This document shows, one piece after another, positions 5,311 to 23,358 of a stretch of DNA of 64,000 nt. Numbering within the stretch: position 1 is the first letter of the stretch; each line of letters opens with the position of its first letter. The translations under genes were made by a program, and so were the position numbers. Source of the DNA: Myxococcota bacterium (GTDB lineage: Bacteria; Myxococcota_A; SURF-8; G963663525). The DNA lies in the NCBI GenBank assembly GCA_963676915.2, contig CAXXVK010000054.1, positions 1-64,000 on the forward strand. The letters are read 5' to 3'. Below the pieces are notes generated by a model. That model had not been told where the DNA came from. It was given only the letters and a program-made list of their open reading frames with translations, and ran no database searches.

Positions 5311-6051
5311 ATGGAAATCATCGAAGCACGCAAAAAGCTGATCGTGGCGATGGACGGAGATTATTCCCTCCAGCAACTGCGTAACCAGGCGAAAACTCTG
5401 AAGAATGCCGTGGGCATGTTCAAAGTCGGTATGCGCCTGTTCACTCGACTCGGACCGGATGCGGTGGATGCCATCGCATCGGAAGGTCTGGGTGTCTTCC
5501 TGGATTTGAAATATCACGACATTCCCAATACGGTTGCACAAGCCTGTGATGAAGCGGTTCGTCTGGGTGGTGTAAGCATGTTTACCGTGCATGCCGCCGG
5601 TGGATCGAAAATGCTGATTCGTGCCGTGGAAGCGACTCGGGAAGCTGCTGCACGCTCCAGTATGGCAAGACCGAAAATCCTGGCTGTTACGGTTCTGACC
5701 AGCTTGGGTAACGACGATCTAGAAGAACTGGGAATCGGAGAAACGGTTTCCCAGCGGGTCGCTCGTTTGGCCGGATTGGCCTCTGACAGCGGTGCGGATG
5801 GTGTTATCGCCAGTCCTCGGGAAATTTCGATTGCTCGTGAACAGATGGGCGATGGCTTTTTGATCGTCACGCCGGGAATTCGTATGCAGGAGACCCCGGT
5901 AGGTAAAGCCGATGACCAGCGGCGCACCTTGTCACCCGGACAGGCCATGGAGGCCGGGGCCGATTATATCGTGGTGGGACGGCCGATCATCGCGGCCGAA
6001 GATCCCGTGGATGCAGCCGAACGCATCGTTCATGCTATGGCGGAGGTCTGA
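5311..6051 (+). CDS. pyrF: Orotidine-5'-phosphate decarboxylase
   Basis: DLKYHDIPNT active-site motif, AVTVLTS, VTPGIR, VVGRPI. Confidence 0.97.
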   Translation: MEIIEARKKLIVAMDGDYSLQQLRNQAKTLKNAVGMFKVGMRLFTRLGPDAVDAIASEGLGVFLDLKYHDIPNTVAQACDEAVRLGGVSMFTVHAAGGSKMLIRAVEATREAAARSSMARPKILAVTVLTSLGNDDLEELGIGETVSQRVARLAGLASDSGADGVIASPREISIAREQMGDGFLIVTPGIRMQETPVGKADDQRRTLSPGQAMEAGADYIVVGRPIIAAEDPVDAAERIVHAMAEV

Positions 6052-6783
6052 TTGCCTCGAAGAGTCGCCGGAATCCGGCCCGTGTTGGAGGTTTTGGAAC
6101 GCAAGCCCGAAGACTGCCGCCGTGCCTGGATGAAAGAAGGAGTGAACAAAAACGCTCTGGAGCGCGTTCATTTGCGCTTAAAACAACATGATATTCCACT
6201 AGAAATCGTTCCCAAAAACGATCTCGACCAACTGTTTTCCGGCAATCATCAAGGGGTGGTTGTCGAGTTGAAGCCGTTTCGTTACGCTTCATTCGATGAG
6301 GTGTTTTCTCGTGCCGCCGATGGTTCGAGCATTGTTCTTGTACTCGATCAGGTGCAAGATCCCCATAATTTCGGAGCGTTGATCCGAACCGCCGAAGTGA
6401 TCGGCTGCCGAGCGGTGCTGATCGTCAAAGACAAGCAAGTCGAGGTAAGTCCGACAGTCGAAAGAGTTAGCGCCGGAGCAACGCAATGGATTCCCATCAT
6501 TCGCGAAACCAATCTCGTAAGATCGCTTAACCAATTGAAAAAACTTGGATTCTGGATCTACGGACTCGCAGGGGAGGGGACGAGCGAGCTGTACGACTTG
6601 GATCTAAGTGGGGACGTGGTGCTCGTAGCGGGTTCCGAGGGTCGTGGATTGCGCCCTGGAACCCGCAAAGCTTGCGACGCTCTATGTCGATTGCCGATGC
6701 GTGGCAATGTCGCATCGTACAATGTCTCCGTTGCGGCGGGAATGGCGCTGGGTGAAATTTTGCGTCAGCATGGAAAACGCTGA
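6052..6783 (+). CDS. rlmB: 23S rRNA Gm2251 2'-O-methyltransferase (TrmH/SpoU family)
   Basis: HQGVV, LDQVQDPHNFGALIRTA, GSEGRGLR, SYNVSVA; TTG start directly after the pyrF stop. Confidence 0.9.
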   Translation: MPRRVAGIRPVLEVLERKPEDCRRAWMKEGVNKNALERVHLRLKQHDIPLEIVPKNDLDQLFSGNHQGVVVELKPFRYASFDEVFSRAADGSSIVLVLDQVQDPHNFGALIRTAEVIGCRAVLIVKDKQVEVSPTVERVSAGATQWIPIIRETNLVRSLNQLKKLGFWIYGLAGEGTSELYDLDLSGDVVLVAGSEGRGLRPGTRKACDALCRLPMRGNVASYNVSVAAGMALGEILRQHGKR

Positions 6784-7178: not shown

Positions 7179-9956
7179 ATGAGCAAGAAATTGCTGGTGG
7201 CGGATGATTCAACGACCATTCGTGAAATGGTCAGACTGACTTTTTTGAATACGGATGTCGAAGTGCTTGCCACCGAGGATGGCCAATCCGCCATCGATCT
7301 CGCCCGGAAGGCATCTCCCGATCTGATTCTCGCGGATGTCAACATGCCCGGAATGGATGGGTATGATGTTTGCCGGAACATTCGTTCCGATTCCGAGCTT
7401 GCGAAAATTCCTATACTGCTGTTTACGGGGCTCGAATCCGAACCGGACGAAGAACTCGCCGCCGCGGTTGGTTCGCAGGGGTACGCTTTCAAACCCTTCG
7501 ATACGGAACAATTGATCGAACTCGTCAACCAGCACGCCGGTCAGTGGGTCGAAGGAACCACTGCAAGTGCAGGAGAGGCGGATCTCCAGGGGCAGGACGA
7601 ACTCGAAGATATCGAAATCCTGGAATTGGATGAAAACGATATCGAAATGATCGAAGACGATTCCATGGGGGATCTGGATATTCAGCCGATGGAAGCCCAG
7701 GAAGAATCTGCAGTTGCCGAAGAGAAACCGCAAGATGATTTCGACTTTATGGGAGCTATGGACGAAGTCCCGGAGGCTTCGCCGGAGCCAGAACCAGAGC
7801 CTATATCCGAGCCAGTATTGGAACTCGAATCCCAACCCGTTTTGGATGTGCAATCCGAGCCTGAACCTGAGTTGGAATTGGAATCCCAGCCGGTATTGGA
7901 AGTGGAACCCACGGCAGAAGCGCCGATGGAAGTTAAGTCTTCGACCGAACCTTTCGCAACGGAAATTCCCAGCGAAATCCCCGATGTACCCGAGGAAAAA
8001 GAGGTCGTAGACGAAGTTTTGGATTATGCAACGGAAATTCCTGGAGAGGCTGGAGACGCACTGGATTACGAATCATCTTCCAGTGCCGGGATGGACTATT
8101 CAAGCATCGATGAATTATTGGATGAAATCCCTTCAGCCGAAGATGCTCCCCAAGCGGAAGCTGTTGAGGAAAAAGTCGAAGAAAAAGCGGAAGAAAAACC
8201 CACGGAACTACCTCCCATGGCTTTCGATGATATTTCCATGGATGAGGAAGAAAAGCCGATGGAATTCGAGTCCATTCCAAGTGCGGAAATCATCATGGAT
8301 GATGACGTGGAACCTATAGCCGATGAACCCGTCGTCGAAGCAGAGCCGGAATTGATTTCTGAAGAACCTGAACCTATAGCGGATGAACCTGTTGTAGAGG
8401 CGGAACCTGAACTGATTTCGGAAGAGTCCGAACCGGAAGTGTTGGAAGAACCCGAAACCGTTATCGAACCCGAGCCGCTCGAAGAACCGGTTCTAGCGGA
8501 ACCGGAGCCAGAGGAAGAGTTCGAAACGATTCCGGAAGACGATCTGGAGTTGATTCCCGAAGACGCTCCCGCCCAAGATGTAATCGAACCGAAAATGACC
8601 GACGATGTGGTTGATTTGCTGGCGGAATCCGACGAAATTGATGAGCCGGAACCGGAAGTGGATTTGGAACCGATCTCTGTAGAACCCGAGCCGGAAGAAG
8701 CCGACATTCAGCACGAAATTCAGGCGGATGACCTTCCCGAACAGCCGGTTGCCGACGAATTGGCGGTGGAATCTGTCGAACCGGTTGAACCTTCCGAGGA
8801 ATTCGAAGTTACAAATGTCGTAGAGCATCCCAAGAAAGAATCTCCAGTTTCCGCTGGTCAGGCTGCAATCGATCCCGAGATGTTGAAGGAGATCGTTTCC
8901 GACACCATACAGAGCCAGTTGTCCGAAACGCTCGAAAACCTGTTGCCGAATCTTCTGCAGCAGACCATGGAGAAGGTCGCGGATTCGCAAGTGGATGTTA
9001 TCGAAGAGAAAATCGCTTCCGGTTTGTCCGCTCTTTCCGAGAAAACCGACGATCCGACCGCTTCTTTCAAAGAAGAATTCGAGCAGGTCAAAGAAACACA
9101 ACAAGGACTCAAGGATGGCTTGGAACAACTTCGGCAGGATGTGTCGGATTGGCTGAAAATCCAGGAAGATACGATCGCCGAAAAACTCGCGCCGCTGGAA
9201 GTCTTCCCGAACCAGCTACTCGACCGGCTGGAAATGATGAACGACAAGCTTGGCGTGGTTGGACAACAGATTTCAGGGTTGAATATCGAGATGCCGGAGA
9301 TTTCCCTCGATCCCGTCACTGATGGATTGGACGGACTCAAGGAACAGTCTTCGACGTTGGAATCGGCACTTTCCGGTCTTGGTGAACGGCTCGATACTTT
9401 GCAAGCCACATTCAAAGAACATGCCGATGATCACGGAACTGATGCGTCCGAACCGGTTTTGAGCAAACTGGAAGAACTTGGTGCGACATTGGGCGAGAAA
9501 TTCGCTGCGATGGAGAATGCTGCGCCACAAGAGACCGGAGCTTCGGAAGCGTTTGTCGAAGGAAAACTTCAGGAGCTTTCGGCGCTGGTTTCTTCCAAGA
9601 TTGAAAATGCTCCAGCACCCGCCGAAGTGGATTTGAGTGAAATTCTCAACGAATTCGTGTCGTTGCGGATGTTGATCGAAGAAAAAGCTACACCGGCGGC
9701 AGATTCGGACAAAGGCGAGTCCGTACGTCAGGAACTGATGAAGTTCGCCCGTTGGATGGATGTCCGGCTGAAGAAGATTCCTGCGGTTTCCGGGGGAAGT
9801 GGAGATGGTGGAGTCGATGCCGAAGCGATTCGTGCCGCCCTGCGTGACGAATTGGGTAGCATGATGGGTGAGCGGGTCGATGCTGTCGTATGGGAAGTCG
9901 TACCGGATTTGGTAGACACGATCCTCAAGAATGAACTGGCCAAAAGGGGTAGCTGA
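7179..9956 (+). CDS. romR: RomR-like polarity response regulator (receiver, very long acidic Pro/Glu linker, helical region, RomR C-terminal motif)
   Basis: Receiver LLVADDS...LADVNMPGMDG...KPF; C-terminal VVWEVVPDLVDTILKNEL; lies directly upstream of valS as in myxobacteria; RBS AAGGAG before ATG 7179. Confidence 0.75.
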   Translation: MSKKLLVADDSTTIREMVRLTFLNTDVEVLATEDGQSAIDLARKASPDLILADVNMPGMDGYDVCRNIRSDSELAKIPILLFTGLESEPDEELAAAVGSQGYAFKPFDTEQLIELVNQHAGQWVEGTTASAGEADLQGQDELEDIEILELDENDIEMIEDDSMGDLDIQPMEAQEESAVAEEKPQDDFDFMGAMDEVPEASPEPEPEPISEPVLELESQPVLDVQSEPEPELELESQPVLEVEPTAEAPMEVKSSTEPFATEIPSEIPDVPEEKEVVDEVLDYATEIPGEAGDALDYESSSSAGMDYSSIDELLDEIPSAEDAPQAEAVEEKVEEKAEEKPTELPPMAFDDISMDEEEKPMEFESIPSAEIIMDDDVEPIADEPVVEAEPELISEEPEPIADEPVVEAEPELISEESEPEVLEEPETVIEPEPLEEPVLAEPEPEEEFETIPEDDLELIPEDAPAQDVIEPKMTDDVVDLLAESDEIDEPEPEVDLEPISVEPEPEEADIQHEIQADDLPEQPVADELAVESVEPVEPSEEFEVTNVVEHPKKESPVSAGQAAIDPEMLKEIVSDTIQSQLSETLENLLPNLLQQTMEKVADSQVDVIEEKIASGLSALSEKTDDPTASFKEEFEQVKETQQGLKDGLEQLRQDVSDWLKIQEDTIAEKLAPLEVFPNQLLDRLEMMNDKLGVVGQQISGLNIEMPEISLDPVTDGLDGLKEQSSTLESALSGLGERLDTLQATFKEHADDHGTDASEPVLSKLEELGATLGEKFAAMENAAPQETGASEAFVEGKLQELSALVSSKIENAPAPAEVDLSEILNEFVSLRMLIEEKATPAADSDKGESVRQELMKFARWMDVRLKKIPAVSGGSGDGGVDAEAIRAALRDELGSMMGERVDAVVWEVVPDLVDTILKNELAKRGS
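8310..8429 (+). repeat. 60-bp (20-aa) tandem duplication in the RomR linker
   Basis: GAACCTATAGC at 8310 and 8370; EPIADEPVVEAEPELISEE x2. Confidence 0.85.
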
Positions 9957-9989
9957 TTCTTGCGGTAACCCTTTCGAAGGTGATACAAC

Positions 9990-10016
9990 AAGCCAGCCTT
10001 CGGGCTGGCTTTTTTG
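9990..10016 (+). terminator. Intrinsic terminator between romR and valS
   Basis: AAGCCAGCC-TTCG-GGCTGGCTT followed by a T run. Confidence 0.8.
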
Positions 10017-10054
10017 GTTTGTCGAAACAAAGCAGTATGCAGGAGAACGCAATC

Positions 10055-12856
10055 ATGGCCGACGATGCATTGAATAAAGGCTACGATCCCTCAAATGTGG
10101 AACGAAAATGGTACAAGGAATGGATGGAGAAGGGCTATTTTCACGCCGATGAAAGCGACGACAAAGAGCCGTACACCATTGTTATTCCACTACCCAACGT
10201 TACCGGTCACCTGCACATGGGCCATGCTCTGATGGTGTCGATTCAGGATCTGCTGATTCGCTGGAAACGGATGGAAGGCTATTCGGCGCTCTGGATGCCG
10301 GGAACCGATCATGCGGGAATCGCGACGCAGATGGTTGTAGAACGCGATTTGATGCTGACTGAAGGTAAAACTCGACAGGAATTGGGCCGCGAAAAATTCT
10401 TGGAAAAAGTCTGGGAGTGGAAGGAAGCCAAAGGCGGCAAGATCATCGACCAGTTGAAGGAACTTGGCGCGTCGCTCGACTGGGACCGTACCCGGTTCAC
10501 CATGGACGAAATCTGTTCCCGGGCCGTGCGGGAAAGTTTTGTGCGTTTGTACGACGAAGGTTTGATTTATCGGGGTTGGCGCATGGTCAACCTGTCGCCG
10601 AAACTCCAGACCATCGTTTCGGATCTCGAAGTGGAGTACGACGAAAACGTCAAAGGCGAACTGTGGAGCTTCGCCTATCCCGTCGCCGACGGATCGGGTG
10701 AAATCATTGTTGCCACAACCCGTCCCGAAACGATGCTGGGTGATACCGCAGTGGCCGTTCATCCCGATGACGAACGGTACAAACACCTTATTGGTAAGAC
10801 ACTAAAGCACCCCTTGATGGACTATGAACTGCCGATCATCGCGGACGCCATTCTCGTCGATCCCGAATTCGGTACCGGCGCTGTGAAGGTCACGCCCGGC
10901 CACGATCCCAACGACTTCCAGACCGGACAGCGGCACGATCTTAAAGTGATCAACCTGCTCAATATGGACGGAACCTTCAACTCGAACGCCGGTCCATACG
11001 AAGGACTCGACGTGATGGAGGCTCGGAAAAAGGTCAAAGCGGATATCGAGGCCAAGGGATTTTTCCGGGGAACCAAAGAACATATGATGAACGTCGGACG
11101 CTGCCAGCGTTCCGGCGGGACGATCGAGCCGTACGTGTCCCGGCAATGGTTCGTCAAGACCAAACCGCTGGCCGAACCGGCGATCAAAGCCGTAGAAAGC
11201 GGCGAGACGAAGTTCGTGCCGAAAAACTGGGAAAAAACCTATTACGAGTGGATGTACAACATTCACGATTGGTGTATCAGTCGCCAGTTGTGGTGGGGAC
11301 ACCGTATTCCGGCCTGGTATTGCGAGGACTGCGACCATGTGACCGTCTCGCGGGAAACTCCCGAGGTTTGCGGCGGTTGCGGCGGCAAGAACCTGCATCA
11401 GGATGAAGACGTGCTGGATACCTGGTTCAGTTCGGGACTTTGGCCGTTTAGCACCATGTCTTGGCCCGATGAGACGGAATCGCTGAAAAAATACTATCCC
11501 TCCGATGTGATGGAAACCGGCTTCGACATCATCTTTTTCTGGGTCGCTCGGATGATGATGATGGGAATTCACTTCATGGGTAAGCCTCCTTTCCATACCG
11601 TTTATCTGCACGCCATGGTCCGCGATCACGAAGGCAACAAGATGTCCAAGGTCAAGGGCAACGTGATCGATCCGTTGGACGTGATTTACGGTATCGGTTT
11701 CGATGATCTCATGAAGAAGCGCCGCCAGGATGCGGTCAGCGTGGGGTTGAACGAGAAGAAAATCAAGGGAATCGAAAAAGCTACGAAAAAGGAATTCAAA
11801 GACGGTATTCCGGCTTCGGGTACCGACGCCCTGCGTTTCTCGCTGATTTCCATGGCCGGACATGGACGGGACATCAAACTCGATATCAAACGTATCGAAG
11901 GCTTCCGTTTCTTCGCAAACAAGATCTGGAACGCCAGCCGTTTCATTATGATGAACCTGGAGGATTTCGACGCCGGGAAACCGCTCGATCCTGCTGGTTT
12001 GGGACTTGCCGATAAGTGGATACTGCACCGTCTGTTGAAAACGGTGGAGAATGTCAAAAAAGCCTTGGATGGCTACTATTTCGATCAGGCAGCCATGGCG
12101 GTGTATCACTTCTTCTGGAATGAATTCTGTGACTGGTACATCGAACTGTGCAAGCCTACGCTGTACGGAAAAGTCGGAGGCGGTCCGGAGTATCGGCACG
12201 CCACGCAACATACGCTCGTGACCTGTTTGGACACCGCGTTGAAGTTGCTGCACCCGATTATGCCTTTTATTACGGAGGAAATCTGGCAGAAATTGCCGAA
12301 ACTGAAGGAAGAGCCGGAATCGATCATGATTTCCCGCTTCCCCACGGCGGATGATCTTTCACTGGCCCGCGATTTCGAGAAGGATGCCGCTTCGATGGAA
12401 CGGCTGATGGAAGTCGTCAAGACCGTCCGAAACATTCGCGGAGAAAGCAACCTGGAGCCGGGAAAACAGATTCCTTTGGTTGCCTTATGCCACGACGAGA
12501 GCCTCGCCACGTTGATCGGGGAGCAGGAGTTGTTCATCAAGGAACTGGCTCGTGTGGAAAGCCTGGAAATCGTGAAGGAATTCACCTCCAAAGGGCCGGT
12601 GGCTTCCGGTGTTTGCAACGATGCCGAGCTCTTTGTGCCGTTGGGTGACCTGATCGACATCGAGGAAGAGAAAAAACGGATTCAGCACCAAATCGAAAAA
12701 GCCGCAAAAGACCTTGAAAAGACTCAGAAAAAGCTCGAAAATGAAAACTTCGTTTCCCGCGCTCCCGAAGCGGTGGTACAAAAAGAAAAAAATCGTAAAG
12801 AAGAGTTGAGTTTCATCATCGAAAAGCTTGAAAAGAATCTTGCCGAACTTGGTTGA
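10055..12856 (+). CDS. valS: Valine--tRNA ligase
   Basis: HMGH, GTDHAGIATQ, DWCISRQLWWGHRIP, KMSK, C-terminal coiled coil; RBS AGGAG at 10041. Confidence 0.98.
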   Translation: MADDALNKGYDPSNVERKWYKEWMEKGYFHADESDDKEPYTIVIPLPNVTGHLHMGHALMVSIQDLLIRWKRMEGYSALWMPGTDHAGIATQMVVERDLMLTEGKTRQELGREKFLEKVWEWKEAKGGKIIDQLKELGASLDWDRTRFTMDEICSRAVRESFVRLYDEGLIYRGWRMVNLSPKLQTIVSDLEVEYDENVKGELWSFAYPVADGSGEIIVATTRPETMLGDTAVAVHPDDERYKHLIGKTLKHPLMDYELPIIADAILVDPEFGTGAVKVTPGHDPNDFQTGQRHDLKVINLLNMDGTFNSNAGPYEGLDVMEARKKVKADIEAKGFFRGTKEHMMNVGRCQRSGGTIEPYVSRQWFVKTKPLAEPAIKAVESGETKFVPKNWEKTYYEWMYNIHDWCISRQLWWGHRIPAWYCEDCDHVTVSRETPEVCGGCGGKNLHQDEDVLDTWFSSGLWPFSTMSWPDETESLKKYYPSDVMETGFDIIFFWVARMMMMGIHFMGKPPFHTVYLHAMVRDHEGNKMSKVKGNVIDPLDVIYGIGFDDLMKKRRQDAVSVGLNEKKIKGIEKATKKEFKDGIPASGTDALRFSLISMAGHGRDIKLDIKRIEGFRFFANKIWNASRFIMMNLEDFDAGKPLDPAGLGLADKWILHRLLKTVENVKKALDGYYFDQAAMAVYHFFWNEFCDWYIELCKPTLYGKVGGGPEYRHATQHTLVTCLDTALKLLHPIMPFITEEIWQKLPKLKEEPESIMISRFPTADDLSLARDFEKDAASMERLMEVVKTVRNIRGESNLEPGKQIPLVALCHDESLATLIGEQELFIKELARVESLEIVKEFTSKGPVASGVCNDAELFVPLGDLIDIEEEKKRIQHQIEKAAKDLEKTQKKLENENFVSRAPEAVVQKEKNRKEELSFIIEKLEKNLAELG

Positions 12857-13606: not shown

Positions 13607-15778
13607 TCAGTCATCTACACATTGATTTCCCGAACAGTGTTGGTTGCTTGGACAATACCCGGTGGACCACTGTGTGCAACCGTCGCTGTCCGCCTCGCAG
13701 GTCAGCAGACGTGAAATATCTTCCTCGTGGCAGCGGGTTTGACCTTCGGTACAGATATGCTCGCAACTGCATGCATCGTTGCGGCAGGTCTGATTTCCCG
13801 AGCAGAGGTAGCTACCCGGACTCCACTCCAAGCAGTGGTCATCGTCGTAGTCGCCGCAGATCTGATAGCTGATCGGTTCCGTTTCGTCTTCTTCATTGCA
13901 GCGAATAGCGTCTTCGGCACATTCATCATGACAAGGGGGAAGACAAGTGTAGTTTTTGCCGCATTCAGGATAAGACGGCAGAATGCAATGGTTGTCTGTC
14001 ACGCATTGTTTACAAAGCAAAAGATCCGGGTGGCAGACCATTCCCGAGGGGCAATCCCAGTCGTCGAAGCATTCGTGGCAACTTCCACTGTTTGGATCGC
14101 AAAGCCAGTTTTCCGTAATGCAATCTGAATCGTTGCGGCACATATCGCACAGCCGGTCGAAGGGGTCACAACGGGTGCCGGGACAATCGGACGAACCTCT
14201 GCATTCGTAACAGGCATCTTCGATGCACTGGGATCTTGTGTCATCCAGACACAACAGTGAAAGAACACAGCCGGGGACGCATCGACGGGTCAGGGGATCG
14301 CAAACATCGGTATCCCAAGGCCAGTACTGGCAATCATCCACACTGGCGCAGGAATCGGAAGGTAGATCCTCGCAGCTTCCCAACAATGGGTGACAATAAT
14401 TTCCTATGGGGCATTGTGAATCCGTAGAGCAATCCGCCTCCTGGCAGATGTCCTCGATGCAACGAGCCTCCCCGGTACAATGGTTGTCATCCAGGCACTG
14501 CACGCATTCGCCATTCCCAACGGCTTTGCAGTGTAGGTTTGAAGGGCAGTCGGCGTCCGTTTCGCAACTCGGTACACAATCGTTCGAAACACAGGCAAAT
14601 CCCTGTGAGCAATGCTCGTTTCGGAGGCATTCCACGCATAGACCATCCCCGACATGTCGGCAATAGTGCCCGTTCAAACAGTCTTCGTCGGTATTGCAGC
14701 CGACTACGCACTCGGCTGCTTTGCAGATTTCCCCTTCCGGGCAGTGTGCACTTTCCGTGCATTCAAGGCAATCCCCTGTCCAAGGATGGCAGATGGGTGT
14801 CTCTACCGGACATTCAATCTGTGAGCAATCGACAACGCATTGATGGGACTCGCATACGCGAGGTTCGGTGCAATGTGCATTTTCCATGCACTGGTAGCAA
14901 GTTCCATACGTTCCGGCCAGAGGATCGCAGAGCCTGTTGTTGTCGCAATCGCGGTCGGTGCGACATCCTCTCTGACAATCCCCGGAAATACAGATGTAAT
15001 TGATATCGCAATGTCCATCGGAAAGACAATGGACACATACACCCGTGGCGGTATCGCAAAAAGGTGCTGATGAGGAAGAAGTGCAATCATTGTCGTTTCT
15101 GCAGGAAAATTTGCAAGTTGAGTTGACACAGCGCTCGTCGTCGTCGCAATCGTTGTCGTTGAAGCAATCGACACATTGACCCGGATCGGTCGAAGTGACG
15201 GTTTTACAGAGCTTGTTATCCGGGCAATCACGAGTCGTCCAGCACCCTTCGACACACAGGCTGTTCAGGCAGATTTCTCCTATGTTGCAATCCCCGGAAG
15301 TCGTGCATTCGATTTCGATTTCCGGTTCCACCTCGGATTGATCGACCGTATCGGACTGGTCCGCTTGCTCGTCTTGTTCCGAAATATCCTCGTCGGCAGG
15401 TAGAAGGTCGGGGTCGTCGTCCTGGTCTGTTTCGGTCGTCGTATCGTTATCGTTTTCCGTGATGGAGTCGTTTTCGGTTACCGAATCGTCCCGGTCTGCC
15501 GGTGGTGTTGTTTCGTCCGTATCTCCCCAGGGATTTGGATAGTTCGAGGGTGTAACACAATCGCCATCGTCACAAATCTGGTCTAATGAGCAATCCGCCG
15601 TTTCCCGGCAACCGTCCTTGCAACAGCTATCGACGCAGATTTTTCCCGTAGTGCAGTCTTCGTCCTGTGCACAGGGAGAGGAACAATTCACTCCTAACGT
15701 GACGTCCGAACTGCCACAGGCGAAAAGTCCTGTCAGGAGACAAAAAAGTACGAATCTTTGGATTCCTTGGCGTGTCAT
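13607..15778 (-). CDS. Cysteine-rich repeat lipoprotein (EB/Dickkopf-like 4-Cys modules)
   Basis: Lipobox LFAC (Cys21), acidic D/T/E linker, about 20 CxxDxxC-x4-5-C-x4-10-C modules, roughly 100 Cys in total. Confidence 0.85.
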   Translation of the reverse strand: MTRQGIQRFVLFCLLTGLFACGSSDVTLGVNCSSPCAQDEDCTTGKICVDSCCKDGCRETADCSLDQICDDGDCVTPSNYPNPWGDTDETTPPADRDDSVTENDSITENDNDTTTETDQDDDPDLLPADEDISEQDEQADQSDTVDQSEVEPEIEIECTTSGDCNIGEICLNSLCVEGCWTTRDCPDNKLCKTVTSTDPGQCVDCFNDNDCDDDERCVNSTCKFSCRNDNDCTSSSSAPFCDTATGVCVHCLSDGHCDINYICISGDCQRGCRTDRDCDNNRLCDPLAGTYGTCYQCMENAHCTEPRVCESHQCVVDCSQIECPVETPICHPWTGDCLECTESAHCPEGEICKAAECVVGCNTDEDCLNGHYCRHVGDGLCVECLRNEHCSQGFACVSNDCVPSCETDADCPSNLHCKAVGNGECVQCLDDNHCTGEARCIEDICQEADCSTDSQCPIGNYCHPLLGSCEDLPSDSCASVDDCQYWPWDTDVCDPLTRRCVPGCVLSLLCLDDTRSQCIEDACYECRGSSDCPGTRCDPFDRLCDMCRNDSDCITENWLCDPNSGSCHECFDDWDCPSGMVCHPDLLLCKQCVTDNHCILPSYPECGKNYTCLPPCHDECAEDAIRCNEEDETEPISYQICGDYDDDHCLEWSPGSYLCSGNQTCRNDACSCEHICTEGQTRCHEEDISRLLTCEADSDGCTQWSTGYCPSNQHCSGNQCVDD

Positions 15779-15835
15779 GGCAAAAATCCTATGTTTCGTA
15801 GAAAAGGAAGAGTTGCCATCGCCAAATGACGAGGC

Positions 15836-17830
15836 TTATTCGACTTCCTCCTCCAGTTCGTCTTCGAGTTCTTCATCGCCGTCAACGGCCGGATCGTCGC
15901 CGCCTTCCATGGCATCCAGCACCAGTTTAGCCGCCGAAATGCCCGAGCTGATAACAGCTGACTGTCCCGGTCCGGGGAAGGTCCAGGCACCTGCCAGGAA
16001 CAGGTTTTCGATCGGCGTTTTTTGGGGAAGGCGATTAAGCAACGACTGCTCCGGCGTGCCATCGAAGCCAAAGAACGTTCCCTTGGGATTCAAAGTGAAT
16101 CGTTCCAGTGTGGGAGGCGTGGCGATGGAAAGGGACTCGATGTGCTCGCTCAAACCAGGCAGTAGTTGTTCGGTACGATACAGCAATTTATCCGCGATTT
16201 CCTTTTTGATGGACTGGTACATTTCACGGTCATCGTAAAATTTCCATACATCATTCCAATCGTACCCGAGTTCGCTGGCAATTACGAGGACATTTTTCCC
16301 TGCCGGAGCGACATCCGGGTCGGAAAGAGAGTAATTGGTGATCAGGAAAGGCGCTTGATCGGCGTTGCACTCGTCGTTGTAGGAAAAGTTCGTATGCTGG
16401 TCAAAGCCGTCGTTGACGAAAATTTCGTGCGCTTCATCGAAATATTCTCGGAAATCGGCATCTGTACCGATGTACAAAACGATGGCGCTCAGGCCGATGC
16501 TCATGTCTTCGATGTCGGAAACGTAGTCTTCGGGAAGGTACTCGGAGCCTACCATCTTCAGCATCGTAGCGGGGGCGTTGGCGTTGGAAACGACGTAATC
16601 GGCGCGATAACAGGCGTCGTCTTTCGTTTGAACTTCCACGGCTTTGCCGTCCTCGATAACGATTTTTTCCACAAGCGTGTTCAGCTTGACAATGCTACCG
16701 TTGTCCTCGATTTCATCCGCCATCGCCTGGGTGATCGATTCGGAACCGCCTTGGAAGTAGTAGAATCCATGAAGATGGTAGCCGAACCACATAACCATGT
16801 AAAACGCGGCGGAGATTTCATCCGGCTCGGTTCCGGCGTAACTGGCCAACTGCGTCATGAGAAGCATCAGCCGGGGATCGGAAATGTAGTCGTCGAGCAT
16901 ATCGGTCAGAGTCATGCTCATGTAGCCGTACAATTCCATCATGTCTCCGGCATGGCTGGCGGCGTATTCGGTCCAGGTTTCGCCTCCGGCGCTTTGTGCG
17001 GCCGCAAGTTCGAGGTACTTGGCTTCCAAAGCATAAATGTCTTCGAAGAGCAGGTCTATTCCGTCGGCTTCTTCGGGGACCAGCTCTTTGAGTTGGGATT
17101 TGAAAATCTCGGGATCGGACGGAATCACCATTTCCAGATCTTCCGTAACGACTTTATACATCGGGTCGAGGCGTACCGGCTTAAGCTTGTCCCAAATTCC
17201 CAAAGCTCCAAAATCTTTAGGAACTTCTCCCTCTTCGTGGTCGAGACCGCCCATGGCGTGCAAAGAGATTTCAAACGTGTAGTCGCCACGTTTGAAGCGC
17301 GTCATGTAACCGCCGACTTTGTTGTGTTTTTCGATCAAAACCACTTTTTTTCCGGCTCGTGCCAACACCGTGGCCGCGCTCAGACCACCGCCGCCCGCGC
17401 CGATGACCACCACGTCGGCGGTTTCCGTAACGGGACAGCCTTCGGTTGTGTCGTATTTGTGGCAGGCTACGCAGGTGTCGTCCGAATCGAAGGTCAAGTC
17501 TTCGTGGGCTTGCATATGACACTGCGTACAATTTCCGCTGGCGTGTCCCGCTTCTCGTTGAGGTGCTCCGTTGACACCGTGACAGGCGACGCATTGAGGT
17601 GTAACCGAGCCATTGGCGTGCACGTTTTCGTGGCAGGACAGGCATCCCGCTTTTTTCCAGCCTGCATGGGATTCACCCAGTTGGGCTTCCGGGACTCCGG
17701 GTGTGGCGGACGTTACGGCGTCGACGGCTCCGTTGCCGTTTTCGTCATCATCGGAATCCGAGCAACCGATTGCGAAACACAACGTGAAGATAGAAAGTAC
17801 CAAGCCCCAACAAGCGAGTGAACGACGCAT
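15836..17830 (-). CDS. Lipoprotein flavocytochrome: tetraheme c domain fused to a phytoene desaturase/retinol saturase-like FAD oxidoreductase
   Basis: Lipobox AIGC (Cys23); VDAVTSAT; CLSCH, CVACH, CTQCH, CVACH; VVVIGAGGGGL...EKHNKVGG; YYFQGGS; ATPPT..RFT.NP.G; TPIENLFLAGAWTFPGPG. Confidence 0.88.
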   Translation of the reverse strand: MRRSLACWGLVLSIFTLCFAIGCSDSDDDENGNGAVDAVTSATPGVPEAQLGESHAGWKKAGCLSCHENVHANGSVTPQCVACHGVNGAPQREAGHASGNCTQCHMQAHEDLTFDSDDTCVACHKYDTTEGCPVTETADVVVIGAGGGGLSAATVLARAGKKVVLIEKHNKVGGYMTRFKRGDYTFEISLHAMGGLDHEEGEVPKDFGALGIWDKLKPVRLDPMYKVVTEDLEMVIPSDPEIFKSQLKELVPEEADGIDLLFEDIYALEAKYLELAAAQSAGGETWTEYAASHAGDMMELYGYMSMTLTDMLDDYISDPRLMLLMTQLASYAGTEPDEISAAFYMVMWFGYHLHGFYYFQGGSESITQAMADEIEDNGSIVKLNTLVEKIVIEDGKAVEVQTKDDACYRADYVVSNANAPATMLKMVGSEYLPEDYVSDIEDMSIGLSAIVLYIGTDADFREYFDEAHEIFVNDGFDQHTNFSYNDECNADQAPFLITNYSLSDPDVAPAGKNVLVIASELGYDWNDVWKFYDDREMYQSIKKEIADKLLYRTEQLLPGLSEHIESLSIATPPTLERFTLNPKGTFFGFDGTPEQSLLNRLPQKTPIENLFLAGAWTFPGPGQSAVISSGISAAKLVLDAMEGGDDPAVDGDEELEDELEEEVE

Positions 17831-17962
17831 AGTTCCACCTTTTTTCCGGTTTTTGTTGTTTGTTCATATATCTACGGTGTCGTGGACGCAGAATAGCTCA
17901 GAGTTGGTGAAATCGCAACGAAGATGCAGGAATTTTCTCGACCTTTTACAAAGAATTACAAT

Positions 17963-20161
17963 TCAACGAATCGCGAGACTTAACGAATACTTCGTTTCGG
18001 AATTTCCCAGTTGAAATTCGATCCGGTGGGAGCCTTCCAGCAACGTTACTCCGGAGACGGGAGTTTCTCTGCGAGTGCGTCCATCGATAAAGAACCGTGC
18101 CCATGGCTGGGCGTTGAAGTTGCATGTGGCTTTCGTACGCCAGAGGTTTTGCTTGTCCTGGAACTGATCCACATGCAGTCGAATCGCGAAAAAACCTTCA
18201 GGCGTGCGTGCGGTGAAAAGCTGGTCTTTTTCAGGAGTTATCGCAGCGACGATGCGTTTTTGCTCGGGACCGCCGTTGTGACTAAAACCAAGTTCAGACT
18301 GACGGGAAAGCCACTTGATTTGCGGTGTCCAAGGGGACAACGCAACGCGAAGGGTTTCTGTTTCCTGCTTCGTTACTTTGAGTTCGAGGGTTTTCGTATG
18401 GAATCCCTTGGCTGTAAATGTGGCGGATAGGGATTTCCCGCCGGTGACGGGTGGCGTGGTTTCACCATGCTTGAGTGCTCTGCCACCGACGGTGATTTCG
18501 GTGTTGGCCGGAGTCGTCTCGAAACGATAGCGCGTCTGTTGCGGAACGAGGTTGTAATTCTTTGTTTCCGGTTTGTCGCCTGCTTCGGTGATGGTGAAAC
18601 GATCCTCAAAGGGTGCGTAGCCCGGTTTGGTTAAAAGAATCTTTTGTTCGACGCCTAAAGGGAAGGCTGCGAGGATCAACGGTGTGGTTTCCTGAAGCTT
18701 TTTGTCGTTGAGGGTGACCTCGGCATTGGGAGGATCGCTCTGGATTTTCACCATCCGGGTGAGTCTTTTCAGTTCTACGTGCTTTTTCGTCTCCTGTCCG
18801 CTTTCGACGCGAAAGGAAACGTTTTGTGCCGCATGAAAAGGGGCCTGAAGGGTTGCAGCCACATTCGTTTCAGCCGGTAAACGAGGAAAGCGGGCAGGGC
18901 AGGGCTGCTCCGGTTGTCCCGGAATCACTACCGTTGCACCATCGGCGTTGCTTGTCACAAGAAGAGAACCGGTTTCCGGTGCTTGCAAAAACCAGTATGT
19001 AGCAGAGGCGAGCGATGCGATGAGAAAAATGAGTATCAACGGCCACAGCGTTCGTTTACGTTTCGGTTTTTGACGTGTAACTTCCGTTTTTTTCGGATAC
19101 GCGGAAACCTGTGTGGATTCGAGAGGTTGTTTGAGGCTTTCACCAACCACCACGGTTTTTTCCGCCGGTTTCCCCGAAGGAACCACGATGGTTTTTTCGG
19201 GAAGTGCGCCGGTAGGACTTTGGGCCGCTTCGAAATGTTGGCTCAATAAATCGGCCAGGTCGCGTCCTTCTCCTCGTGCGAGGAGTGGATTTAATAACGC
19301 TTCGATTTCCGAAAGAAGTTCTTTGCAGGATTGGTAACGTTCTCCGGGGTCCAGAGCGGACGCCTTGCTACATAGCGCTAGAATCTCCGGTGTGAGATAT
19401 TCCTGAGTTTCCGAGTCGTTCCAAGGGGTTTTTCCTTTCACGATTCGATGCAGCAGGTCGTCGGCGGTTTGTTCCGAGGGCAGGGTGTCGTCCAGTGAAA
19501 AAGCTTTCCTGCCGCTGGCCAGTTCATAAAGCAGCAATCCCAAGGCGTAGATGTCGCTTCGCTGGTCCACGCGCTCGCCGCGAATGGTTTCGGGAGGCAG
19601 GTAGGGCAGTTTTCCCGCCATGGCTGAATCGTGGAACTGTTCCCGGCTTCGTACGCTGGCCAGGCCGAAATCGGTGAGCTTGATTTCTCCTTCGAAACTG
19701 ACGAGGACGTTGGACGGTGTCACGTCGCGGTGTACGAGGTGCAACAGACGGCCGTTTTCGTCGGAGAGACGGTGAGCGTAATCCAGGGCGCGGCAGACGG
19801 ATCGAACGATGGGCAGCGCGAAAGCCGCTCCGAAGTCTGTTCCCCGTTCTTTCATTCGGGCGATCAGGCTTCCCAGGTCCACTCCGCGAACGTATTCCAT
19901 GGCGAGCCAGAGATTGCCGTCTTCATCGCCGAAGTCGTAAATCTGTACGATATTCGCATGATTGAGACGTGCACTGAGGCTTGCTTCCGAGCAGAACATC
20001 TCGCTGAAACCGGGTTGGTGGCTTAAATGCGGAAGCAGCTTTTTCACCGTGACCAGTTTTTCGAAATCACGGCCCCGCTGCAATTTCGCAAGGTAGACTT
20101 CTCCCATTCCCCCAGTGGCGAGACGTTTGATCAGGTTGTACGAGCCGACGTTTTCCGCCAT
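17963..20161 (-). CDS. Membrane Ser/Thr protein kinase with PEGA repeats
   Basis: GGMGEVY, HRDVTPSN, DFG, YLPPE, DIYALG; TM segment LWPLILIFLIASLA; PEGA-like SDPPNAEV and TTPANTEI repeats. Confidence 0.93.
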   Translation of the reverse strand: MAENVGSYNLIKRLATGGMGEVYLAKLQRGRDFEKLVTVKKLLPHLSHQPGFSEMFCSEASLSARLNHANIVQIYDFGDEDGNLWLAMEYVRGVDLGSLIARMKERGTDFGAAFALPIVRSVCRALDYAHRLSDENGRLLHLVHRDVTPSNVLVSFEGEIKLTDFGLASVRSREQFHDSAMAGKLPYLPPETIRGERVDQRSDIYALGLLLYELASGRKAFSLDDTLPSEQTADDLLHRIVKGKTPWNDSETQEYLTPEILALCSKASALDPGERYQSCKELLSEIEALLNPLLARGEGRDLADLLSQHFEAAQSPTGALPEKTIVVPSGKPAEKTVVVGESLKQPLESTQVSAYPKKTEVTRQKPKRKRTLWPLILIFLIASLASATYWFLQAPETGSLLVTSNADGATVVIPGQPEQPCPARFPRLPAETNVAATLQAPFHAAQNVSFRVESGQETKKHVELKRLTRMVKIQSDPPNAEVTLNDKKLQETTPLILAAFPLGVEQKILLTKPGYAPFEDRFTITEAGDKPETKNYNLVPQQTRYRFETTPANTEITVGGRALKHGETTPPVTGGKSLSATFTAKGFHTKTLELKVTKQETETLRVALSPWTPQIKWLSRQSELGFSHNGGPEQKRIVAAITPEKDQLFTARTPEGFFAIRLHVDQFQDKQNLWRTKATCNFNAQPWARFFIDGRTRRETPVSGVTLLEGSHRIEFQLGNSETKYSLSLAIR

Positions 20162-20566: not shown

Positions 20567-21838
20567 CTATGTGGCAAAAAGCGGAGGCTGTGGGACAAGT
20601 TCCACCTCTCGACCGCCAACGAAAACACGATGAACGTGATTGCGTCCCCAGCGGTAGAAAAGGTAGTCGATGCCGGGAACATCGAACAACACGAGATCCG
20701 CTCGCAGTCCTTTTTCGATTCTCCCACGATCACCCAGAGCCAGGGAACGGGCGGCGTCTGATGTGACGGCAGGCAGCAGCTTTTCGGGTGTCCAACGCAT
20801 TTGCATTGCCGCAAGTTGGGCGATCAGCGGAAGATTGGCGCAAACGCAGCTACCTGGATTGAAATCGCTGGCCAGCACAACGCACAGCCCGGCTTTGTAC
20901 ATGGCTTCTATGGGCGCGAAGTTGTGCGATCCGAGGTTTAGGGTCGTGCCGGGCAATATGGCGGCGATCACTCCTTTTTTTGCCATATCGGCAATTCCCT
21001 GGTCGCTGACCGCCATCAGGTGGTCACAGGCTACGGCGTCGAGTTCCGCCGCCAGTTCCGCTGCACCGGAGGGTGCGAATTCGTCGGCGTGAAGACGCAA
21101 AAGCAGGCCGTGTTCGCGCCCGGCAAGCAGGATTTTGCGGGACTGATCCACGTCGAACCATCCCTTTTCGCAAAAAACGTCACAAAAACGTGCAATTCCC
21201 TGTTCGGCTACGGCAGGCAGCATTTCCTCGACAATAAGGTCTACGTAGGCATCGCGGCGATCACGGTATTCCAGTGGAAATTCGTGCGCGCCCAGAAAGG
21301 TTGGGACAACCTGCGGCGCACCTTCGTCTCGAAGTTTTCCCAAGACAGCGAGTTGCTTGAGTTCGCTTTCGGTAGTCAGTCCGTAACCGCTTTTTCCTTC
21401 GATGGTGGTGACGCCGTAGCCGAGCATTTCGTCCAGCCAATATCGCGCTGTCCGGTACAATTCGTCTTCCGACGCGGCCCGTGTGGCTTTGACCGTCGTT
21501 TGAATGCCTCCGCCGCGAGCGGCGATTTCGGTATAGGGCACGCCTCGAAGACGTTCGGCGTACTCCGTCGAGCGCTCTCCTGCAAACACCGGATGGGTGT
21601 GGCTGTCGATCCACCCCGGCGTTAGGGTCGTTTTTCGGGCGTCTATTGCAGGCATTTGTCTATAGTTATCGGGTAGTTCCGTTTCGTGGCCTGCCCAGTC
21701 GATCAAGCCGTCCCGGACGGCAACCGCTGCGTTTTCAATCCGTCCCAACGGATTGTCCGGGGTGATGCGTTTTTCATCGAGTGTGGCCATGACGGCGATA
21801 TTGTGAAGAACGAAAGAGGACGAATTTGTAAGATTCAT
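20567..21838 (-). CDS. hutI: Imidazolonepropionase
   Basis: PGWIDSHTH, GGGI..TV.ATR, EGKSGYGL, TFLGAH, DVFCE, LHADE, SDFNPGS. Confidence 0.95.
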   Translation of the reverse strand: MNLTNSSSFVLHNIAVMATLDEKRITPDNPLGRIENAAVAVRDGLIDWAGHETELPDNYRQMPAIDARKTTLTPGWIDSHTHPVFAGERSTEYAERLRGVPYTEIAARGGGIQTTVKATRAASEDELYRTARYWLDEMLGYGVTTIEGKSGYGLTTESELKQLAVLGKLRDEGAPQVVPTFLGAHEFPLEYRDRRDAYVDLIVEEMLPAVAEQGIARFCDVFCEKGWFDVDQSRKILLAGREHGLLLRLHADEFAPSGAAELAAELDAVACDHLMAVSDQGIADMAKKGVIAAILPGTTLNLGSHNFAPIEAMYKAGLCVVLASDFNPGSCVCANLPLIAQLAAMQMRWTPEKLLPAVTSDAARSLALGDRGRIEKGLRADLVLFDVPGIDYLFYRWGRNHVHRVFVGGREVELVPQPPLFAT

Positions 21839-21920: not shown

Positions 21921-22598
21921 TCAGTCCAGGTACATCGAAAAGATCGGCTTGAGTTTCTTGGCGCTGTTTTTAATGCTCATGGTGACGCCGTAACCGAAGG
22001 CGTCGAGAATGATAATGCTGTTGACGGTTGCATCCTGCTTGGAAGCGGCACGGATGCGATCGGCGAGTTTGTCATTGACTTTGTGCACGTTTTCGTAAAT
22101 CTCCTTGAGACCATCGATGCTCCAATCGGGTGTTTGGCCCTCCTGTTCGCGAACGAACTGCGCGGTCAAATACATTCCGATGGCACGAAAAACGGTATGT
22201 TCCCGCGTACCGAATGGAAGATGAAATTGTGCCATGGGCCGTAAACGTCCTACAACCGGGCAACTCGATAGCGCCAGCAGCAGTCCGAGCAGTGATCTCA
22301 CCGCGTTTTGCATCGTGGTTTGAGCTTCGATGCGGACATCGTGTTGCTCGACGGTTACTTTGACATCTTCGTAGGATATTTTGTGGCTGAAGGCTTCGAC
22401 CACAGGTTTCATGGCCATCGCCGCCGGGCAAGTGGTACGCGAGGACGGATCGAGCGGGCAGCCTTCGCAACGGTAACGATCCAGCCGCATCCACTCGGGA
22501 ACTTCCGTCAGGTTTTCTTCGTAAGAGGTGTCGGATTGCTCGTCGATGGCGAATTCAATGACCGTCTGAGGGTCGAATTCGAAGCGGTAATGGATCAT
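21921..22598 (-). CDS. Conserved hypothetical protein (DUF6901-like)
   Basis: W..L....C.GCPL......CP and SSCP...LRPMAQFHLPF pattern; family name recalled from memory. Confidence 0.65.
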   Translation of the reverse strand: MIHYRFEFDPQTVIEFAIDEQSDTSYEENLTEVPEWMRLDRYRCEGCPLDPSSRTTCPAAMAMKPVVEAFSHKISYEDVKVTVEQHDVRIEAQTTMQNAVRSLLGLLLALSSCPVVGRLRPMAQFHLPFGTREHTVFRAIGMYLTAQFVREQEGQTPDWSIDGLKEIYENVHKVNDKLADRIRAASKQDATVNSIIILDAFGYGVTMSIKNSAKKLKPIFSMYLD

Positions 22599-22644
22599 CT
22601 TTCGCTCCTTGAATGAACATAGGCCGAAAAATTACGAAAATGCA

Positions 22645-23358
22645 TTATTTTTTCTTTTTGGCGGCTCTACGGGTTAGCAGCAGCAGCCAATCATGGACGG
22701 GTTTCATTTTTTCGTATCGTCGGAAACAATAATCGACGAAACCTTTCTGCGTGAAAATACGGGGGATTTTCTCTTCGGTTCCCACATGCAAACCATTATG
22801 TTTCAACCAACAAGCCATGGGATGGGAGGTGTCGATTCCCCTCGGAACGCGTTTGTAGTGGCGTCCACCGATCTCGTAGCCTTTCTCGGGAAGCGATTCG
22901 ATGGCCGAAAGCAGGCTTGTGGCGTACCGTTTTTGCACGATATTCCTGCGGTATTCGGCCAATTGTTCCTTGGAAAAGCAATATAGCCCTACACCGAGCT
23001 TGATGTTGGTTGCGTCCAACTGAAAATAGTACCCGGAGCACTCCAACTTCTTGCCGGAACCTTCCCAGAACCACAATCCCATGTGGGTTTTGTAAGGGCT
23101 TTTGTCTTTACTGAAGCGAATGTCCCGATTGATACGGAACATCGACTGGTTGATACGAGGGTCGGCGACGACCTTGGGGGAAAGCTCTCGAAGTTTTTCT
23201 CCCATAGCCACAACGAAGTCTTTGGCCGGTTCCAATACGTATTCGTCGTATTGAGCGCGGTTTTTGGAAAACCATTCTTTATTGTTGTTTTTTTTCAACT
23301 CTTCAAAAAATGAGGACGTTTCTTTGGAAAAGCCCGAAAAACCGGCGGCTTTTGCCAT
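22645..23358 (-). CDS. DUF2461/TIGR02453 family protein
   Basis: NNNKEWF, FRINRDIRFSKDKSPYKTH, KRVPRG. Confidence 0.9.
   Translation of the reverse strand: MAKAAGFSGFSKETSSFFEELKKNNNKEWFSKNRAQYDEYVLEPAKDFVVAMGEKLRELSPKVVADPRINQSMFRINRDIRFSKDKSPYKTHMGLWFWEGSGKKLECSGYYFQLDATNIKLGVGLYCFSKEQLAEYRRNIVQKRYATSLLSAIESLPEKGYEIGGRHYKRVPRGIDTSHPMACWLKHNGLHVGTEEKIPRIFTQKGFVDYCFRRYEKMKPVHDWLLLLTRRAAKKKK

Follow-up and report, generated by a model that had tools for sequence, protein, structure and literature searches.

The DNA analysed here, a window of 64,000 nucleotides from a Myxococcota bacterium (positions 1 to 64,000 of contig CAXXVK010000054.1), contains a gene for a predicted exported lipoprotein, P0001, in which an N-terminal tetraheme cytochrome c module is fused to a flavin adenine dinucleotide (FAD) domain of the CrtI/COG1233 type. 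The protein belongs to a real and conserved family of uncultured sediment bacteria, which is not characterised so far. We read it, with a probability of roughly 0.5, as a periplasmic reductase of the anaerobic-respiration type, analogous to flavocytochrome c3; the reaction and the direction of electron flow, from the hemes through FAD to a substrate, are inferred from sequence features, family relationships and genomic associations. The features that define the architecture are the following:

15836..17830, minus strand: whole open reading frame (ORF) of the lipoprotein flavocytochrome precursor P0001, 664 residues plus stop, open and with an ATG start
17762..17830, minus strand: signal peptide with the lipobox AIGC, Cys23 being the predicted lipidation site (sequence and conservation)
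17459..17668, minus strand: tetraheme c domain, residues 55-124 (motifs, alignment and domain profile)
15896..17425, minus strand: CrtI/COG1233-type FAD domain, residues 136-645 (Pfam, NCBIfam and Foldseek)
17384..17401, minus strand: dinucleotide-binding Rossmann motif GAGGGG, residues 144-149 (invariant in an alignment of 25 sequences)
15965..16018, minus strand: C-terminal FAD-binding signature TPIENLFLAGAWTFPGPG, residues 605-622, of the pattern TP..NL.LAG...FPG.G (same alignment)

All statements of invariance below refer, unless another sample is named, to this alignment of 25 sequences, which share 43-83% identity with the query. Several independent comparisons bear on the identity of the catalytic domain. 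The Pfam family Amino_oxidase (PF01593) matches residues 149-638 over positions 3-443 of a model of 443 (90.6 bits against a threshold of 19.8, E 1.7e-25), whereas FAD_binding_2 (PF00890) is restricted to residues 139-179, and the other Pfam FAD families likewise cover just the Rossmann stretch of about 40 residues. The NCBIfam model TIGR02734 (crtI_fam) gives a full-length match, with residues 140-642 aligned to positions 1-493 of 504 (E 3.1e-53, 181.2 bits), and the CrtID and CrtD models of the same collection match more weakly, far under their equivalog cutoffs. When a profile of the 25 sequences was compared with solved structures, CrtD (4rep, 2.4e-40) and CrtI (4dgk, 4e-37) came out on top, and the flavocytochromes c3 1p2h and 1p2e aligned solely over 41 residues, at profile positions 145-185, which is again the Rossmann stretch. 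Foldseek searches with the AlphaFold model recovered 4rep (E 1.3e-27, TMt 0.84) and 4dgk (E 2.9e-23), further the archaeal structure 3ka7 and plant PDS, and then amine oxidoreductases of the MAO and NicA2 types at about 1e-18. With these matches and the N-terminal GxGxxG-type motif, P0001 shows the three-domain CrtI fold. In the C-terminal signature P606, L612, G614, W616, T617, P619, G620 and G622 are invariant. Matches in the ESM Atlas were solely generic CrtI/RetSat-like clusters, whose scores (0.86-0.87) are too low to be more than a lead. On sequence grounds, the FAD domain is a divergent member of the CrtI/COG1233 group, either a distant member or a sister group of crtI_fam.

The N-terminal module presents its candidate heme ligands in the order H55, C63xxCH67, H71, C80xxCH84, H96, C101xxCH105, H109 and C120xxCH124, so that the CxxCH motifs begin at residues 63, 80, 101 and 120. 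Throughout residues 1-135, histidine occurs solely at positions 55, 67, 71, 84, 96, 105, 109 and 124, that is, four within CxxCH motifs and exactly four others. All four motifs are invariant, as are H55, H71 and H109, and H96 is retained in 24 of the 25 sequences. The sole methionine of the domain, M106, is not conserved (it is Thr in P0003), and because the domain is thus devoid of a conserved Met, the four conserved histidines are the expected sixth ligands, giving bis-His ligation. Bis-His hemes of the c3 type are usually of low potential. A profile built from 18 sequences of the heme domain found its best match in the c3-like repeats of the high-molecular-weight cytochrome c, Hmc (1h29, E 3.3e-10), and also matched the 16-heme cytochrome, NrfH (6.7e-6), the nine-heme cytochrome c 1duw (2.7e-5) and the small tetraheme cytochrome (STC) 1m1p (E 8.2e-4, spanning positions 11-80 of 91). 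The Pfam class III models stay below threshold on P0001 itself (Cytochrome_C7 E 0.047, Cytochrom_CIII E 0.24). As judged by the profile matches, the heme module is probably of the class III, c3/STC-like kind, and we infer that the mature protein is loaded with four c-type hemes and FAD.

Cys23 of the lipobox is present in all 25 aligned sequences and in 120 of 129 fused homologues. Since the signal peptide lacks a conserved twin-arginine motif, export by the Sec route is expected, and P0001 is probably an exported, lipid-anchored protein. A first-pass annotation, made from the letters of this DNA, had named the lipobox cysteine, the four CxxCH motifs, the four extra histidines, the GAGGGG motif and the C-terminal signature, and had predicted export with lipid anchoring; all these elements are present and conserved, and the prediction of export stands with Cys23. 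Its assignment of the enzyme to the CrtI/RetSat type, and not to the fumarate-reductase type, is likewise borne out by the crtI_fam match and by the 41-residue limit of the c3 alignment: the domain does not cluster with fumarate or urocanate reductases, and CrtD and CrtI are its closest relatives among solved structures.

The fusion recurs widely. A word-indexed search gave 588 significant proteins, and among the query and 120 listed matches (121 proteins, on which the motif counts rest) 107 carry four CxxCH motifs, seven carry three and seven carry none; in the three-motif proteins P0115 and P0125 the first motif reads Cx4CH. An exhaustive search of representatives yielded 1183 proteins at E <= 1e-30, with a step in score from about 370-380 bits for fused or exported forms to about 285-315 bits, at about 35% identity, for cytoplasmic CrtI-like proteins. 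The contigs bearing a fused gene all come from metagenome-assembled genomes (MAGs), labelled as Myxococcota, Myxococcales, Polyangia, Bradymonadales, Anaeromyxobacteraceae, Sandaracinaceae or Thermodesulfobacteriota, some with generic labels. Of 400 other genomes examined in the phylum, 15 hold a full-length copy; these 15 represent seven family codes, and one of the genomes (G083) has the heme part in another frame. A contig of 2071 bases from a run of a different study spans positions 15804-17829 of the window with 108 substitutions and no gaps; because this independent contig is gapless over the ORF, and the four-CxxCH layout is shared by so many proteins, the fusion is not an assembly chimera, an origin that the first-pass annotation had itself named as a possible undoing of its proposal.

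That proposal was of a new flavocytochrome class, and it holds for the architecture and its undescribed state, while in place of the implied singular protein there is a sizeable family, whose members come from Myxococcota, Thermodesulfobacteriota and other MAGs. We found no description of the combined tetraheme and CrtI architecture in the full-text literature searched, and outside that scope the fusion may already have been catalogued. The only database labels of the family are 'FAD-dependent oxidoreductase', 'retinol 13,14-reductase' and 'prolycopene isomerase'. Some members depart from the common layout. P0128 (1018 residues) and P0137 (1238 residues) have about seven additional CxxCH motifs behind the FAD domain, and P0137 has a further C-terminal region with a hydrophobic, basic, anchor-like tail at its end. 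At L019:8028-8330 and L029:8001-8300 an in-frame stop interrupts the heme-domain part of the fused gene, and at G083:C16 this part lies in a separate frame; these interrupted copies are possibly pseudogenes or the result of sequencing errors.

The evolutionary history of the FAD domain indicates how the fusion came about. Homologues of about 535 residues without hemes, about 50% identical to P0001, bear N-terminal hydrophobic signal peptides lacking twin arginines. The first-pass annotation had stated that bacterial COG1233 enzymes are typically cytoplasmic, which is untrue of this lineage, given these Sec-type signal peptides on its nearest heme-less relatives. A FastTree phylogeny of the domain was computed from 161 sequences of 470-760 residues, comprising 46 fused proteins (the query and a random sample of 45 out of the remaining 126), 20 that are exported and lack hemes, 90 that are cytoplasmic, and five others. 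The fused proteins group in a single clade (support 1.0), which includes three non-fused, truncated-looking rows, and this clade is nested among the exported heme-less forms with supports of 1.0 and 0.94. The nesting within a signal-peptide-bearing group thus points to a single addition of the heme module, to a lineage that was already extracytoplasmic. Two cysteines, which the first-pass annotation had overlooked, accompany the module:

17435..17437, minus strand: Cys132, in the linker between the domains and a candidate for a disulfide with Cys407 (conserved as Cys in 125 of the 129 fused homologues)
16610..16612, minus strand: Cys407 in the FAD domain, co-varying with the heme module (Cys in 126 of 129 fused homologues)

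Both are invariant in the alignment, and at position 407 the 25 heme-less homologues have Glu in 12 cases and Cys in three. This co-variation suggests that C132 and C407 probably form an interdomain disulfide. In the AlphaFold model of the whole chain (predicted local distance difference test, pLDDT, 81.9; predicted template-modelling score, pTM, 0.84) the two domains are packed together with confidence.

Pointers to the direction of electron flow come from relatives of the heme module that exist on their own. A search with the single sequence of residues 30-135 revealed no shorter stand-alone forms, whereas the heme-domain profile, run against the genomes of the phylum, recovered small stand-alone lipoprotein tetraheme cytochromes (E 3.4e-16 to 2.9e-14). 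In three genomes of one genus (G063, G078 and G123) such a cytochrome is divergently adjacent to a lipoprotein enzyme of the FAD_binding_2 family that is exported by the twin-arginine translocation (Tat) route:

L106:5998-6513, L108:6016-6504 and L109:6001-6504, minus strand: stand-alone cytochromes with the motif VDTVTGAT (one genus)
L106:6524-8260, L108:6562-8253 and L109:6600-8210, plus strand: the partner FAD_binding_2 genes, divergently adjacent

In a further genome (G071) the module gene, at L110:5995-6393 on the minus strand and devoid of this motif, overlaps the 3' end of a FAD_binding_2 gene at L110:6383-7936 on the same strand, whose fumarate-reductase-like product has a twin-arginine signal and a lipobox; the genome is of a different family from the one-genus cases, and the gene pair looks like a split flavocytochrome operon. 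The characterised extracytosolic fumarate-reductase-like enzymes are reductases fed by cytochrome or flavin mononucleotide (FMN) modules (PMC8238504, PMC4427408). It is because stand-alone modules partner FAD_binding_2 enzymes, because the ligation is bis-His, and because the order of domains resembles that of flavocytochrome c3 (Fcc3) that we consider a reductase the best reading of P0001. Another subgroup of stand-alone modules, without the flavinylation-like motif, is found at L107, L112 and L114 (about 5800-6700 and 9300-11400), where its conserved surroundings include a Porin_O_P protein as well as a di-heme protein of about 550 residues.

As a reductase, P0001 would be exported by the Sec route and lipid-anchored to become a periplasmic flavocytochrome c. 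The cytochrome c maturation system would add four c-type, bis-His hemes to the c3/STC-like module after export, the C-terminal CrtI/COG1233-type domain would take up FAD in the periplasm, and the C132-C407 disulfide would probably staple the two domains together. Electrons from the quinol pool would then probably pass, via a NapC/NirT-type quinol dehydrogenase or other multiheme cytochromes, to the four hemes and from these to FAD, and the reduced FAD would reduce a C=C (or similar) bond of its substrate. Of the components that such a chain would require, the genome encodes a cytochrome c assembly protein, a NapC/NirT-family protein (33.5 bits, above cutoff) and 22 ORFs with at least two CxxCH motifs, the maximum being 19. 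At G000:C8:8342-17024, ORFs with 19, 10 and four CxxCH motifs are no more than a few kilobases away from an FMN_bind protein, in a region that may be a mixed flavin and multiheme electron-transfer cluster.

Six points weigh against a reductase. 1) It is homologous modules, and not P0001 itself, that are associated with FAD_binding_2 enzymes. 2) At 181.2 bits P0001 falls short of the curated crtI_fam cutoff (238.1), and with every equivalog model it stays far under the respective cutoff; no known reaction can be transferred to it. 3) Clustering of the neighbours at 76 related loci found no gene conserved beside the fused form, and so gives no pointer to a substrate or partner. 4) Foldseek and VIA-align searches with the isolated apo model of the heme domain (pLDDT 75.4) gave no structural match, which is uninformative because an apo multiheme model is a poor query. 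5) Most characterised CrtI-family enzymes (desaturases, CtmAB, the delta-24 desaturase) oxidise their substrates. 6) NicA2 and Pnao, of the amine-oxidase family, pass electrons to the cytochrome c CycN (PMC9396064), and the opposite direction of flow therefore has precedent in the same superfamily.

The last two of these points lend themselves to the alternative that survives best, in which P0001 would be a periplasmic dehydrogenase, either a desaturase or a water-dependent allylic hydroxylase, that oxidises a hydrophobic or allylic substrate and hands the electrons on, via FAD and the hemes, either to the respiratory chain or to acceptors outside the cell. Besides the mostly oxidative habit of the family, this would accord with the limonene dehydrogenase CtmAB, a COG1233 enzyme of anaerobic limonene hydroxylation (PMC4109377), and with the steroid delta-24 desaturase, a COG1233-related anaerobic dehydrogenase (PMC11061730), both of which require an electron acceptor, as well as with the use of CycN by NicA2 and Pnao (PMC9396064). 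NicA2 structures are among the fold matches at about 1e-18, and the seven extra C-terminal heme motifs of P0128 and P0137 would suit electron export. Set against this, the four conserved distal ligands of the P0001 family are His and not Met; in oxidative flavocytochromes c, such as PCMH and FCSD, the hemes are of the His-Met kind and have a higher potential, and hemes of the c3 type are ill suited to accept electrons from C-C desaturation. The homologous heme modules, moreover, are partnered with fumarate-reductase-like enzymes, and JGI labels homologues as RetSat or CRTISO, two branches in which the flavin works in its reduced form. We regard a dehydrogenase as rather unlikely, though as a rival to be taken seriously.

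CRTISO leads to a second alternative, a redox-neutral isomerase catalysing cis-trans isomerisation or double-bond migration, the hemes of which would just keep FAD reduced in an oxidising periplasm. The carotenoid isomerase model is the second-best NCBIfam match, over its full length, several homologues carry the JGI label prolycopene isomerase, and the heme-less exported homologues exist without an obvious redox partner. The score of that match is, however, 158.7 bits against an equivalog cutoff of 586.9; four hemes, and up to eleven motifs in relatives, would be a heavy investment for occasional re-reduction; and SQS_PSY, a marker of the carotenoid pathway, was looked for in the genome (90.8% complete) and not found, so that we rate an isomerase as very improbable. 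That P0001 is an artefact, be it a chimeric assembly, a read-through of two genes or a decaying functionless gene, would fit the stops in the heme regions of L019 and L029 and the separate frame in G083, and is dismissed in view of the same layout in 107 of 121 proteins from many independent assemblies, the invariance of catalytic and ligand residues at about 45% identity, the gapless whole-ORF contig and a good ribosome-binding site.

As for the substrate of the proposed reductase, the first-pass annotation had suggested carotenoids, hopanoid or sterol precursors, or prey lipids. There is no conserved neighbourhood to sustain these suggestions, and with no SQS_PSY (PF00494, phytoene/squalene synthase) found in this genome at 90.8% completeness, an endogenous substrate of the carotenoid or hopanoid kind is unsupported. 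A search for related loci with the single P0001 sequence gave none, whereas a query with the alignment did find loci. In the window, a gene for a predicted lipoprotein of 723 residues with Cys-rich repeats and without a Pfam family (13607-15778, minus strand) lies directly downstream, across a gap of 57 bp; it is not conserved beside the fused gene at other loci. Upstream, at 17963-20161 on the minus strand, is a gene for a Ser/Thr protein kinase of 732 residues with a PEGA domain. Kinases of its cluster were considered as conserved neighbours and rejected: they recur near the fused gene at five loci, but their placement varies from locus to locus, and the recurrence is probably noise from paralogues. 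Further away, genes for DUF6901 and DUF2461 proteins (21921-23358, minus strand) adjoin an amidohydrolase gene (20567-21838) and are apparently unrelated to the flavocytochrome. A heme-less lipoprotein homologue, about 50% identical, has a setting of its own at L077:4918-12097 (also at L044 and L079), with three mutually paralogous, Cys-rich proteins of about 280 residues on its flanks, which have 2x[4Fe-4S] domains and no transmembrane segments; an AraC regulator is present there too, as is another CrtI-like gene, whose product is cytoplasmic. The notion that the Fe-S proteins of L077 and L044 are NapH-like was dropped, in the light of their missing transmembrane segments.

The remaining features of the gene are these:

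17835..17840, minus strand: Shine-Dalgarno-like AGGTGG, with a 4-nucleotide spacer to the ATG at 17830 (direct reading)
17726..17761, minus strand: tether SDSDDDENGNGA, acidic and of low complexity, its length varying across homologues (25-sequence alignment)
17699..17722, minus strand: D37-A-V-T-S-A-T43-P44, an ApbE-type flavinylation-like motif with Thr43 as candidate FMN attachment site (motif counts)
15839..15895, minus strand: C-terminal tail, residues 646-664, acidic and disordered (not conserved in the 25-sequence alignment)

A promoter and terminator scan at the P0001 gene gave no excess over shuffles, and in the AlphaFold model residues 21-39, around the tether, and 645-664 have pLDDT below 50. 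The flavinylation-like motif, like the cysteine pair, had escaped the first-pass annotation. Its conservation was gauged in 132 fused proteins with at least three CxxCH motifs, using the pattern [ST][SGA]A[ST] upstream of heme 1. The pattern is present in 123 of them, in 106 of these exactly 26 residues ahead of the first CxxCH, with Pro next in 121 and Asp in the first position in 94. The Ala is fixed by the search pattern, yet it is invariant in two alignments (25/25 and 18/18). At the Gly position Ser predominates (103 of 123, with Gly in 12 and Ala in eight), and Thr, His, Tyr or Asn stands there in some of the nine exceptions. The recognition motif of ApbE is D-x-x-[S/T]-G-A-[S/T], seven residues being enough and a place near a terminus best, and a change of G to A in a model protein left about 50% of flavinylation (PMC12052999). 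The three FMN_bind proteins of the same genome read VDAVSGATV, ILAITGATI and IDAVTGATV, the three stand-alone homologues of the one genus have the strict VDTVTGAT at the equivalent place, and one heme-less exported homologue retains DAVSSAT right ahead of its Rossmann fold.

Covalent flavinylation of the Thr43 region, perhaps as a fifth redox centre, is in our estimate possible and somewhat doubtful. What speaks against it is the Ser at the Gly position, the absent FMN_bind domain, a chance match in a cytoplasmic protein and an uninformative ApbE background. FMN_bind (PF04205) has no match in P0001 at E up to 1, the motif coming straight after the disordered tether. The loose motif occurs 36 times in the 2.9 million six-frame residues of the genome, and the second occurrence followed by Pro (DVDVVTSATP, on C13) was set aside as a chance match, since it lies in a cytoplasmic protein that, judged by eye, looks like a nucleotidyltransferase of the CCA-adding/poly(A) polymerase type. 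ApbE has two matches in the genome (G000) and is present in all ten other fused-gene genomes tested; this co-occurrence (11/11) was rejected as evidence for flavinylation, the background being 334 of 401 genomes of the phylum.

Among known systems, the nearest in function is flavocytochrome c3, and by descent the relatives are CrtI, CrtD, CRTISO and RetSat for the FAD domain and the class III/STC cytochromes for the heme module, as far as sequence comparison can tell. Flavocytochrome c3/Ifc3 of Shewanella (FccA; 1p2h, 1p2e) likewise consists of an N-terminal tetraheme part followed by a Rossmann FAD enzyme in one exported chain, with four CxxCH motifs and four distal histidines as in P0001, and the two presumably share the logic of a quinol dehydrogenase feeding hemes, FAD and finally a C=C bond. 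The catalytic domain of flavocytochrome c3, however, is FAD_binding_2, whereas that of P0001 is CrtI/COG1233 (Amino_oxidase clan) and has no full-length FAD_binding_2 match; P0001 further differs in being a lipoprotein with an acidic tether and a conserved flavinylation-like motif ahead of heme 1. To CrtI (4dgk), CrtD (4rep), CRTISO and RetSat the FAD domain is similar in sequence and fold over its full length, and P0001 departs from them in its sub-cutoff score, its export, its linked hemes and a genome in which phytoene/squalene synthase was not found. The known members of these groups are, to our knowledge, cytoplasmic or plastidial, membrane-peripheral and without hemes. Because it lacks the catalytic domain of the one family and falls below the curated cutoff of the other, P0001 is a member of neither the Fcc3 nor the crtI_fam family, and is a flavocytochrome c on a different flavoenzyme scaffold.

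Three further systems invite comparison. In split reductases, such as the methacrylate reductase Mrd with its cytochrome Mcc in Geobacter sulfurreducens AM-1 (PMC4427408) and the clusters of fumarate-reductase-like enzymes and cytochromes (PMC8238504), the cytochrome is a separate protein, just as homologues of the P0001 module stand alone beside FAD_binding_2 enzymes; in P0001 itself the module is fused and the catalytic partner comes from a different flavoenzyme family. The ApbE-flavinylated reductases (UrdA, and Listeria FrdA with FMN_bind) have a site that VDAVTSATP of P0001 resembles, at the electron-entry end and with ApbE in the genome, whereas P0001 is without FMN_bind, 103 of 123 homologues have Ser for Gly, and its flavinylation is putative. 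CtmAB and the delta-24 desaturase are phytoene-dehydrogenase-like flavoenzymes that act on allylic carbons without O2 and use an external electron carrier (PMC4109377, PMC11061730), ferredoxin being implicated for CtmAB (PMC4109377); they are heteromeric, with a covalent histidyl-FMN (PMC11061730) and no hemes, and are likened to P0001 by their description and not by sequence.

Put together, these likenesses allow a more speculative picture, which as a whole we hold to be unlikely: a respiratory enzyme with three cofactors, of a kind so far undescribed, in which an FMN attached by ApbE to Thr43 of a bare N-terminal tag, in place of an FMN_bind domain, would pass electrons to four hemes and these to a CrtI-type FAD. 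Unsaturated lipids, terpenoids or other alkenes could in this way be respired or detoxified by the uncultured Myxococcota and Desulfobacterota of anoxic sediments. The tag and the tetraheme module would then constitute a portable electron-entry module, found also as a free lipoprotein that serves fumarate-reductase-like enzymes. Whatever the fate of that picture, the motif of P0001 is a testable candidate for ApbE flavinylation outside the known flavinylated domains, and database labels that conceal the heme module, such as 'retinol 13,14-reductase' and 'prolycopene isomerase', are corrected. All characterised tetraheme flavocytochromes c that we know of are built on the fumarate-reductase-family scaffold, and here the same heme electron-entry module is joined to a quite different one, that of CrtI, RetSat and CRTISO. 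Enzymes on that scaffold are known to desaturate, saturate or isomerise hydrophobic alkenes, or to oxidise them at allylic positions. If P0001 is indeed a respiratory reductase, its substrates would add a class of electron acceptors (or, on the rival reading as a dehydrogenase, of donors) for the anaerobic metabolism of the abundant uncultured Myxococcota and Desulfobacterota of sediments.

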